From: Escherichia coli
GTDB lineage: Bacteria > Pseudomonadota > Gammaproteobacteria > Enterobacterales > Enterobacteriaceae
Assembly: GCF_016026235.1 (NCBI RefSeq)
Contig: NZ_CP065613.1
Direction: 5' to 3' (one strand)
Length of the DNA stretch: 64,000 bases
Shown here: positions 28,047-62,913 of the stretch, piece by piece
How positions within the stretch are numbered: position 1 is the stretch's first letter
How the letters are laid out: the number at the start of each line of letters is the position of its first letter
Notes under the pieces: generated by a model
The model's database searches: none
The model's input: only the letters and a program-made list of their open reading frames with translations
Told to the model about the DNA's origin: nothing
Translations under genes and position numbers: made by a program

Positions 28047-28163
28047 AAAAAAAAGCGGATCCTGGAGATCCGCAAAAGTTCACGTTGGCTTTAGTTATTC
28101 GAGTTGAGAAACTCTCGAAACGGGCAGTGACTTCAAGGGTTAAAAGAGGTGCCGCTCCGTTTC
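28047..28163 (-). ncRNA. oxyS: OxyS small regulatory RNA (oxidative stress, OxyR-induced)
   Basis: Minus-strand sequence gaaacggagcggcacctcttttaaccc...gcggatctccaggatccgc followed by a U run matches my recall of oxyS; divergent from oxyR. Confidence 0.8.
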
Positions 28164-35667: not shown

Positions 35668-35795
35668 GATGTATCCTGAAAAATTAAAGTACGCGGCGAT
35701 TGTAGGGATTGCTCATCAGATGTCCAGATCTTGATGAATTCCTATTTGTGAGCTACGTCTGGACAGTAACTTGTTACAACCTGTAGCATCCACTT

Positions 35796-35990
35796 GCCGG
35801 TCCTGTGAGTTAATAGGGAATCCAGTGCGAATCTGGAGCTGACGCGCAGCGGTAAGGAAAGGTGCGATGATTGCGTTATGCGGACACTGCCATTCGGTGG
35901 GAAGTCATCATCTCTTAGTATCTTAGATACCCCTCCAAGCCCGAAGACCTGCCGGCCAACGTCGCATCTGGTTCTCATCATCGCGTAATA
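35796..35990 (+). promoter_or_regulatory. Adenosylcobalamin riboswitch in the btuB leader
   Basis: Leader sequence gccggtcctgtgagttaatagggaatccagtgcgaatctggagctgacgcgcagcggtaaggaaaggtgcg...aagcccgaagacctgccggcc matches my recall of the btuB leader and B12 box. Confidence 0.8.
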
Positions 35991-39094: not shown

Positions 39095-40635
<1,541 letters not shown>

Positions 40636-40796: not shown

Positions 40797-40989
40797 CTTG
40801 CTGGTTTGTGAGTGAAAGTCACCTGCCTTGATATCTCAAAACTCATCTTCGGGTGATGTTTGAGATATTTGCTCTTTAAAAATCTGGATCAAGCTGAAAA
40901 TTGAAACACTGAACAACGAGAGTTGTTCGTGAGTCTCTCAAATTTTCGCAACACGATGATGAATCGCAAGAAACATCTTCGGGTTGTGA

Positions 40990-43889
<2,900 letters not shown>

Positions 43890-43981
43890 ACAACGCCGAA
43901 GATGTTTTGGCGGATGAGAGAAGATTTTCAGCCTGATACAGATTAAATCAGAACGCAGAAGCGGTCTGATAAAACAGAATT

Positions 43982-44101
43982 TGCCTGGCGGCCTTAGCGC
44001 GGTGGTCCCACCTGACCCCATGCCGAACTCAGAAGTGAAACGCCGTAGCGCCGATGGTAGTGTGGGGTCTCCCCATGCGAGAGTAGGGAACTGCCAGGCA
44101 T
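43982..44101 (+). rRNA. rrfB: 5S ribosomal RNA
   Basis: tgcctggcggccttagcgcggtggtcccacctgacccc...gggaactgccaggcat, 120 nt. Confidence 0.95.
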
Positions 44102-44115
44102 CAAATTAAGCAGAA

Positions 44116-44145
44116 GGCCCGGTCGGAAGACTGGGCCTTTTTGCG
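44116..44145 (+). terminator. rrnB terminator (single hairpin)
   Basis: ggcccggtc-ggaa-gactgggcc hairpin (9 bp stem with one G-U pair, GNRA-type loop) followed by tttttgcgttt. Confidence 0.7.
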
Positions 44146-44235
44146 TTTCTACAAACTTTCCCTGTCGTCATAACTACAAGCCATCCCCCCACAGATACGG
44201 TAAACTAGCCTCGTTTTTGCATCAGGAAAGCAGCT

Positions 44236-45264
44236 ATGAACCACTCCTTAAAACCCTGGAACACATTTGGCATTGATCATAATGCTCAGCACATTGTATG
44301 TGCCGAAGACGAACAACAACTACTCAATGCCTGGCAGCATGCAACCGCAGAAGGGCAACCCGTTCTTATTCTGGGTGAAGGAAGTAATGTACTTTTTCTG
44401 GAAGACTATCGCGGCACGGTGATCATCAACCGGATCAAAGGTATCGAAATTCATGATGAACCTGATGCGTGGTATTTACATGTAGGAGCCGGAGAAAACT
44501 GGCATCGCCTGGTAAAATACACTTTGCAGGAAGGTATGCCTGGTCTGGAAAATCTGGCATTAATTCCTGGTTGTGTCGGCTCATCACCTATCCAGAATAT
44601 TGGTGCTTATGGCGTAGAATTACAGCGAGTTTGCGCTTATGTTGATTGTGTTGAACTGGCGACAGGCAAGCAAGTGCGCTTAACTGCCAAAGAGTGCCGT
44701 TTTGGCTATCGCGACAGTATTTTTAAACATGAATACCAGGACCGCTTCGCCATTGTAGCCGTAGGTCTGCGTCTGCCAAAAGAGTGGCAACCTGTACTAA
44801 CGTACGGTGACTTAACTCGTCTGGATCCTACAACAGTAACGCCACAGCAAGTATTTGATGCGGTGTGTCATATGCGCACCACCAAACTCCCTGATCCAAA
44901 AGTGAATGGCAATGCCGGTAGTTTCTTCAAAAACCCTGTTGTATCTGCCGAAACGGCTAAAGCATTACTGTCACAATTTCCAACAGCACCAAATTACCCC
45001 CAGGCGGATGGTTCAGTAAAACTGGCAGCAGGTTGGCTTATCGATCAGTGCCAGCTAAAAGGGATGCAAATGGGTGGGGCTGCGGTGCACCGTCAACAGG
45101 CGTTAGTTCTCATTAATGAAGACAATGCAAAAAGCGAAGATGTGGTGCAACTGGCACACCATGTAAGACAAAAAGTGGGTGAAAAATTTAATGTCTGGCT
45201 TGAGCCTGAAGTCCGCTTTATTGGTGCATCAGGTGAAGTGAGCGCAGTGGAGACAATTTCATGA
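44236..45264 (+). CDS. murB: UDP-N-acetylenolpyruvoylglucosamine reductase
   Basis: 342 aa ORF, same length as K-12 MurB. Confidence 0.95.
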
Positions 45265-53104: not shown

Positions 53105-53143
53105 GCCAACCCTTCCGGTTGCAGCCTGAGAAATCAGGCTGAT

Positions 53144-53176
53144 GGCTGGTGACTTTTTAGTCACCAGCCTTTTTGC
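53144..53176 (+). terminator. rplL-rpoB intergenic attenuator (partial terminator)
   Basis: ggctggtgac-ttttta-gtcaccagcc hairpin followed by tttttg, about 250 nt upstream of rpoB. Confidence 0.65.
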
Positions 53177-62504: not shown

Positions 62505-62913
62505 CAAAACCCACCTTAAGGTGGGTTTCGCCAGAGAATTATCTCTGGTATTCAGAACGCCATTACCGGACTTTGCCTTGACCTTGCGATAATCGCAGGT
62601 TGCGGGATGTCTGAATTTCTTCAGTCTGCTGCATCCTGGAAGATGAGAACATGTGTTCTTATTTTCGTCTCTATCATAGTTGAGTATTTACTCTCTTACA
62701 ATCAGATCTCTTTCATTGCTCAACAGGCGATGGCTTCAGACTTTGCATTACGGAATTTTTAAGAAAGGCAGGGCGAAACGAGGAAGAAGCTTTTCGCCCT
62801 GGACAACATTCCTGCTGACGGCACTACCATAAAAAAACAGAACGCTTTCAACAACCTTGCGTTTTTCATCTTCCGTAGCGGCTCGGAATAAATTTACGTT
62901 CTTACATTCCGTC

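Follow-up and report, generated by a model that had tools for sequence, protein, structure and literature searches.

Genes and features at the locus

The window analysed here is a stretch of 64,000 nucleotides of Escherichia coli DNA. It contains one rRNA operon on the plus strand, in the order 16S - tRNA-Glu - 23S - 5S, and murB is the first gene downstream of the rrnB terminator. The features are listed below, with the evidence used to place them.

28054-28163, minus strand: OxyS (Rfam, above the gathering score; expected in this region of E. coli)
35781-35970, plus strand: cobalamin riboswitch (Rfam, above the gathering score; expected in this region)
39095-40635, plus strand: 16S rRNA gene
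40874-40982, plus strand: StyR-44, in the 16S-23S spacer (Rfam, above the gathering score; expected in this region)
40990-43889, plus strand: 23S rRNA gene, with tRNA-Glu between 16S and 23S
43982-44101, plus strand: rrfB, the 5S rRNA gene, 120 nt (full-length alignment to K-12 rrfB)
44102-44115, plus strand: 5S trailer CAAATTAAGCAGAA, A/U-rich, single-stranded or weakly paired (sequence and fold)
44116-44137, plus strand: core of the T1-like terminator hairpin, with a 9-bp stem and a GGAA loop
44133-44140, no strand: position of the 166-nt length difference to K-12 (MAFFT), the exact point being ambiguous inside the shared GGCCTTT
44138-44148, plus strand: U-tract TTTTTGCGTTT, the same as the tract behind K-12 T2, with 5 T unbroken
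44149-44235, plus strand: murB leader and upstream region (alignment and outgroup sequences)
44236-45264, plus strand: murB, UDP-N-acetylenolpyruvoylglucosamine reductase (ORF; annotation of the identical regions of EDL933 and FDAARGOS_943)
53109-53170, plus strand: P26 (Rfam, above the gathering score; expected in this region)
62506-62666, minus strand: sroH (Rfam, above the gathering score; expected in this region)

The 5S gene ends at 44101 and murB starts at 44236, leaving an rrfB-murB spacer of 134 nt (44102-44235), the length given in the initial annotation. The Rfam family RF00001 places the 5S rRNA at 43984-44099 (93.2 bits). An 18-mer, AACTGCCAGGCATCAAAT (44089-44106), covers the last 13 nt of the 5S gene and the first 5 nt of the trailer. 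At 43993-43994 (5S positions 12-13), rrfB of the window reads GGCCTTAGCG, where K-12 rrfB reads GGCAGTAGCG; EDL933 carries the variant of the window. A minus-strand ORF of 93 codons (43740-44021) overlaps the 23S-5S junction and the 5S gene, and is almost certainly spurious. The small ORFs of the spacer (22-42 codons) were rejected as candidates; all of them overlap the 5S gene, the hairpin or the murB start, and no support was found for them.

The terminator hairpin

The hairpin begins 14 nt past 5S, the last gene of the operon. It consists of GGCCCGGTC (44116-44124), the GGAA loop (44125-44128) and GACTGGGCC (44129-44137), followed by TTTTTGCGTTT, in which TTTTT (44138-44142) precedes GCGTTT. 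Seven of the 9 bp in the stem are G-C, and a G.U wobble joins G44121 to T44132. Folded in a 41-nt context, the hairpin has an energy of -26.1 kcal/mol (z = -6.3), and 0 of 200 shuffled sequences were as stable; the fold of the whole spacer gives -36.4 kcal/mol (z = -2.8). For comparison, the T1 and T2 hairpins of K-12 fold with -28.1 and -22.7 kcal/mol, respectively. The strong hairpin and T run noticed initially are therefore present at 44116-44137 and directly behind it. The element has a G+C-rich stem-loop with an adjacent U run, and lies at the 3' end of a transcription unit on the transcribed strand, as intrinsic (Rho-independent) terminators do. It is a known kind of element, an ordinary intrinsic terminator that is carried as a common allele.

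The hairpin fits the rrnB T1 family, which is of the type GGCYCRGTC-GRAA-GACYGRGCC right behind the 5S trailer. The 3' flank of T1, TTT(C/T)GTTTTATCTGTTGTTTGTCGG leading into rrB, is absent from the window, which reads TTTTTGCGTTTCTACAAAC. The T2-family hairpin, GGCCATCC-NNNN-GGATGGCC, is also not found in the window; the whole inner stem differs, and the hairpin of the window is 2 nt longer.

Alignment of related sequences showed that the stem is paired in 13 of 13 variants, in 100% of the cells. The variants form a series of C-G, U.G and U-A at one pair, and of A-U, G.U and G-C at another, although 66 of 500 shuffles reach this level with only 13 related sequences. The window represents the G.U intermediate of the second series. 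Position 44121 is A in FDAARGOS_943, and is G in O157:H7, O145 and E. albertii as in the window. In E. albertii, the partner of this G is changed to C, which restores a G-C pair.

A pattern-based scan for terminators and promoters over 43700-44600 reported no consensus terminator or promoter. The same scanner detects K-12 T1 but not K-12 T2, although T2 is a known terminator and shares its flanks with the hairpin of the window; the negative result therefore carries no weight. In the fold, the 3' half of the trailer pairs with the U-tract. The scanner likely misses the hairpin in this way, with the A-rich trailer paired to the T-run and the stem extended through it.

The order of these elements suggests how the operon would end. 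RNA polymerase would transcribe the 5S gene and the 14-nt A/U-rich trailer. The 9-bp G+C-rich hairpin and UUUUU would then act as the intrinsic terminator, and the transcript would be released about 90 nt before murB. The remaining ~90 nt would form the conserved murB leader. The processing of 9S RNA by RNase E is established. The trailer may thus hold an RNase E site just 3' of the 5S, as judged from 9S RNA processing and from the work of Stenum et al. (2021, PMC8144298).

The murB leader

The last 64 nt before murB are invariant among four divergent E. coli genomes in the alignment. This region contains AGGAAA (44224-44229), which is the ribosome-binding site of murB. Genera of the Enterobacteriaceae share the conserved block ATACGGTAAACTA (TAAACT at 44201-44206), which from its sequence is plausibly the putative -10 region of a murB-birA promoter. 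A literature search for a mapped murB promoter or start site gave nothing usable.

Comparison with the rrnB end of K-12

In K-12 MG1655, the last position of rrfB is 4171756 and the first of murB 4172057, so that the spacer is exactly 300 nt and not 134 nt. The K-12 arrangement had been given in the initial annotation as about 300 bp with tandem terminators T1 and T2 and repeated flanks, and the alignment to K-12 bears this out. The K-12 spacer contains a 30-nt direct repeat with a spacing of 168 nt, 87% identity and the perfect 18-nt core AACTGCCAGGCATCAAAT. One copy covers the end of 5S together with the trailer that leads to T1, and the other lies before T2. No direct repeat was found in the spacer of the window; the 18-mer duplicated in K-12 occurs once in the window, at 44089-44106. 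The extra K-12 sequence comprises the T1 3' flank, the rrB gene, the second 18-nt repeat and the T2 hairpin. In the window, a T1-like hairpin is bordered by a generic 5S trailer on one side and by the murB-side flank on the other.

The hairpin resembles K-12 rrnB T1 (Brosius 1981 and Orosz 1991, as cited in PMC8144298) in several respects. Both lie directly after the 5S trailer, and both have a 9-bp stem, a 4-nt loop and close predicted stabilities. Their hairpins are identical at 19 of 22 nt (GGCCCGGTC-GGAA-GACTGGGCC in the window and GGCTCAGTC-GAAA-GACTGGGCC in T1). However, the flanks are different. The 5' trailer is CAAATTAAGCAG in the window and CAAATAAAACGA before K-12 T1. On the 3' side, the window has TTTTTGCGTTTCTAC, which is of the T2 or murB-side type, and K-12 T1 has the interrupted TTTCGTTTTATCTG; the U-tract is 5 uninterrupted T in the window and TTTCGTTTT in T1. 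Unlike K-12 T1, the hairpin of the window is not followed by rrB or a second terminator.

The flanks are those of K-12 T2. T2 is preceded by the same 18 nt, is followed by the same U-tract, and is likewise the last terminator before murB. From the U-tract to murB, the window equals the T2 side of K-12 except for 3 substitutions. The trailer of the window, CAAATTAAGCAGAAGGCC, recurs exactly before T2 in K-12, as the initial annotation had supposed from resemblance. This trailer, CAAATTAAGCAG, is not specific to T2, and is also present behind rrfC and rrfH in K-12. The K-12 T2 hairpin itself (GGCCATCC-TGAC-GGATGGCC, 8-bp stem, -22.7 kcal/mol) differs from that of the window. Moreover, T2 is preceded by a 5S 3'-end remnant at the rrB end, whereas the hairpin of the window is preceded by a real 5S gene.

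Termination at K-12 T1 is 87% and at T2 100%, according to Orosz 1991 as quoted in PMC8144298. K-12 T1 is reported to be leaky and has the interrupted U-tract UUUCGUUUU, and the window has UUUUU; a tight sole terminator would therefore be expected here. By inference from the sequence, the combination of a T1-type stem with the uninterrupted U-tract of T2 would make a tight sole terminator and not a leaky first one. Such a predicted terminator would shield murB-birA from rrn transcription.

These comparisons bear on the origin that was first proposed for the short spacer, in which recombination between the direct repeats would recently have removed one 168-nt unit of a K-12-like tandem. The repeats for such an event are present in K-12 (30 nt, 87% identity, 18-nt perfect core, 168-nt spacing). 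The product would have a T2 hairpin and a spacer of 132 nt; however, the hairpin of the window is T1-like and its spacer 134 nt, and the length difference of 166 nt (300 - 134) is unlike the 168-nt repeat period. The murB-side flank haplotype of the window (CTTTCCC...CATAAC) also differs from that of K-12. The loss of one unit by repeat recombination thus did not hold for this genome, and we consider it highly improbable.

Another explanation is a deletion of 166 nt from a tandem ancestor, between two 7-nt microhomologies, the GGCCTTT at the 3' end of the T1 stem and that of the T2 stem. It would be ancient or recurrent, with the trailer later converted to the generic type. The arithmetic is exact (300 - 166 = 134, with the T1 hairpin joined to the T2 3' flank), and the MAFFT gap falls at the GGCCTTT microhomology point. 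However, a second event is needed for the trailer. This explanation is possible but doubtful; further evidence on it is given with the alleles and outgroups below.

Allele frequencies in E. coli

The K-12 inter-terminator region into murB was used as the query against 5,426 complete E. coli genomes. Class sizes were taken from the BLAST summary bands and from 60 evenly spaced rows, in a collection that is biased to clinical clones. The tandem arrangement was found at rrnB (murB) in 2,516 of the 5,426 genomes (46%). In the genomes without the long form, the best match begins exactly at the 5S-end repeat, and these genomes fall into two classes.

The T2-only short class matches K-12 without a difference over 208 nt (100%); T2 follows 5S directly and the spacer is 132 nt, as in SCZE5. 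It comprises an estimated ~535-710 genomes, or roughly 10-13%. This class is the exact product of the recombination proposed initially, and its occurrence shows that such a product is formed; the window is in the other class. The T1-type short class has ~94% identity to K-12 and is 1-2 nt longer than the T2-only form. It was counted as the 2,261 records (~42%) with a best murB-side match of 90-95%; all sampled rows of this band were the 2-nt-longer short form. Lineage-specific variation, which had been offered as the alternative to loss, is therefore correct, with the T1-type short allele in ~42% of the 5,426 genomes, and the initial interpretation is partly supported overall.

The T1-type short allele is carried by O157:H7 EDL933, O145, SMS-3-5, ST131 and FDAARGOS_943. 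The O145 allele keeps the T1-like trailer CAAATAAAGCGAAAGG, which favours the microhomology deletion. The spacer of the window is 99.7% identical to that of O157:H7. Over 11.9 kb the nearest genome is FDAARGOS_943, and other non-O157 strains come next; the window is therefore not from O157:H7. The window and FDAARGOS_943 have 4 differences over the 12.9-kb locus, one of which, A to G at 44121, falls within the 5' arm of the stem.

A further explanation is an assembly artefact, in which a collapsed tandem repeat gave a falsely short spacer. The region does lie next to an rRNA operon that is present in several copies, and is exactly where many draft assemblies break. Against this, more than 2,000 complete genomes, with many independent O157:H7 assemblies among them, have the same short length class. 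Moreover, a collapse would yield a T2-only junction and not a T1-like hairpin. The chance of an artefact is negligible.

The 134-nt stretch is probably the normal rrnB 3' end in this E. coli lineage, a long-standing allele and not a recent loss. The 'rrnB T1T2' of textbooks and cloning vectors is the K-12-type allele and is not the species norm (46% at rrnB).

The rrA/rrB/rrF sRNA cassette

The extra 166 nt of K-12 hold rrB, which is already described (PMC8144298). Stenum et al. reported that the rrB sRNA gene lies between T1 and T2 and belongs to the tRNA-linked repeat (TLR) family (Rudd 1999, as cited in PMC8144298). The T1-T2 segments of K-12 rrnA, rrnB and rrnD encode RrA, RrB and RrF. These sRNAs arise by read-through of T1, are processed to ~173-nt and 115-nt species, and bind Hfq and CsrA in vitro; deletions of rrA, rrB and rrF gave modest phenotypes only (PMC8144298). 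PMC8144298 mentions neither O157 nor an absence of these sRNA genes within the species.

Compared with this TLR sRNA element, the spacer of the window equals the K-12 locus minus the element; of the 18-nt sequence duplicated by the element, a single copy is kept. A search of the 64-kb window with a 30-nt rrB core, allowing up to 3 mismatches, gave 0 matches. In the thrU-tyrU-glyT-thrT cluster of the window, the search for TLR sequences found generic tRNA similarity only. Rfam has no family for rrB or for these terminators. O157:H7, which has the same rrnB allele as the window, keeps a single copy of the element, rrF at rrnD. This O157 rrF gave a sub-threshold match to RtT (TLR), with 24 bits against a gathering score of 45.

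The 121-nt inter-terminator core was found somewhere in the genome in 3,975 of the 5,426 genomes, and was absent in 1,451 (27%). Insensitivity of megablast was rejected as the reason for this absence; blastn with 11-nt words also gave 3,975 of 5,426. Besides the 46% at rrnB, the tandem was linked to mobB (rrnA) in 1,167 genomes (21.5%) and to yhdZ (rrnD) in 3,239 genomes (60%). Engineered inserts and 68 plasmid matches slightly inflate the rrnB module counts. The presence of rrA, rrB and rrF is polymorphic at all three loci within E. coli. In the ST131 strain 2017_APHA, no copy of the module was found outside the murB junction.

CFT073 was considered as a B2 carrier of a partial module and was rejected, as the match is an engineered vector fragment beside TEM bla. 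The sequence labelled 'CFT073' (NZ_CP051263.1) has, at 832654-834086, a vector-like 5S/T1 fragment and a TEM-181 beta-lactamase gene adjoining msbA, and represents an engineered derivative. In ECZP248, the rrfB-murB region is of the long type but has lost 26 nt between short GGCA repeats, and with them most of the second copy of the 18-nt repeat, at the rrB 3' end. This allele is a precedent for a small deletion between short repeats, as the microhomology deletion requires.

The 27% of genomes without the cassette form a natural knockout series. This agrees with the mild phenotypes reported for the deletions, and the series is usable for tests of function. It is also conceivable, though we find it quite unlikely, that the presence of the cassette is a recurrent copy-number polymorphism (0-3 per genome) that is driven by gene conversion and under selection, with the hybrid of T1 stem and T2 U-tract as a 'sealed' state of a switch. 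If this were true, selection might tune CsrA/Hfq-linked growth-rate signalling, or rrn leakage into downstream genes such as murB-birA.

Other rrn operon ends and the probable exchange of terminator states

The 5S-proximal ends of the other rrn operons were compared in K-12 and O157:H7.

K-12: tandem at rrnA, rrnB and rrnD; T2-type single at rrnG; T1-type single at none
K-12, other operons: rrnE ends in a hairpin of its own; rrnC and rrnH run on into tRNAs
O157:H7: tandem at rrnD; T2-type single at rrnA and rrnE (identical cassette) and at rrnG; T1-type single at rrnB; rrnC and rrnH left out

The single-terminator ends, K-12 rrnG and O157:H7 rrnA, rrnE and rrnG, have the same layout as the window: 5S, a trailer of 14-16 nt, one hairpin and TTTTTGC. 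However, their hairpin is of the T2 type, and that of rrnB in the window is of the T1 type. The rrnA end of strain p11A is of the T1-type single state, with the same trailer and stem as rrnB of ST131. The terminator states thus differ between rrn operons in one genome and between lineages at one operon. The hairpin behind 5S can be regarded as an exchangeable cassette, because the states vary across operons and strains. Three long-standing and interchangeable 5S-proximal states may be proposed: T1-type single, T2-type single, and the T1-rrX-T2 tandem. The distribution of the states in these sequences suggests that they are most likely exchanged by gene conversion between rrn operons, a process that is well established.

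At the rrnE end of EDL933, rrfE adjoins yjaB and yjaA is absent; the rrnE-specific terminator of K-12 is replaced by the T2-type cassette of rrnA together with REP-like sequence. The REP-like GCATTGGCGCAGAAAAAAATGCCGGATGCGACGCTGGCGCGTCTTATC after the T2-type hairpin is common to rrnA and rrnG of K-12 and to rrnE and rrnA of EDL933. The homology of the operon ends therefore extends past the terminator, and could provide a right-hand anchor for gene conversion.

Outgroups and the age of the short allele

Outgroups were scanned with the murB N-terminal coding pattern, using one genome per species, which gave 69 loci. E. whittamii has a spacer of 134 nt after the true 5S end, with the T1-type hairpin GGCTCAGTC-GAAA-GACTGAGCC. 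In E. albertii, GGCCCGGTC-GAAA-GACCGGGCC abuts the murB flank; the contig starts inside the trailer and does not extend to a 5S gene. In Kosakonia oryzendophytica the single hairpin is of the T1 type. In two cryptic Escherichia lineages and most other genera it is of the T2 type, with spacers of 124-134 nt. The tandem was found in Kluyvera genomosp. 3, Klebsiella indica and one Enterobacter, and also in Salmonella diarizonae as judged from the contig start. All three states are old, because each was found across the outgroups.

The short T1-type form in E. whittamii and Kosakonia, and the same murB-proximal hairpin in E. albertii, argue against a recent loss by repeat recombination. For the microhomology deletion the outgroups point both ways. 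Salmonella, Kluyvera and Klebsiella also carry the tandem module, which makes it old, as a tandem ancestor would require. However, the allele also occurs in E. whittamii, Kosakonia and basal groups of E. coli; together with the murB-side hairpin of E. albertii, this indicates that the short form is old and not lineage-specific.

Among the E. coli carriers of the T1-type short allele are strains presumably of phylogroups B2, F and E. The short form is more likely the older one, because it occurs in E. whittamii, Kosakonia and the B2, F and E strains, and E. albertii has the same murB-adjacent hairpin. By parsimony over few outgroups and with these presumed phylogroups, we lean towards a T1-type single terminator as the ancestral state at rrnB in Escherichia, and towards the K-12 tandem as derived. 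Recurrent deletion could mimic the ancestral state.

A MAG contig labelled Flavobacterium psychrophilum (QFQM01000754.1) was also noticed. It has a 5S-murB junction of the Enterobacteriaceae that is nearly the same as in Phytobacter, and it is probably mis-binned or a contaminant.
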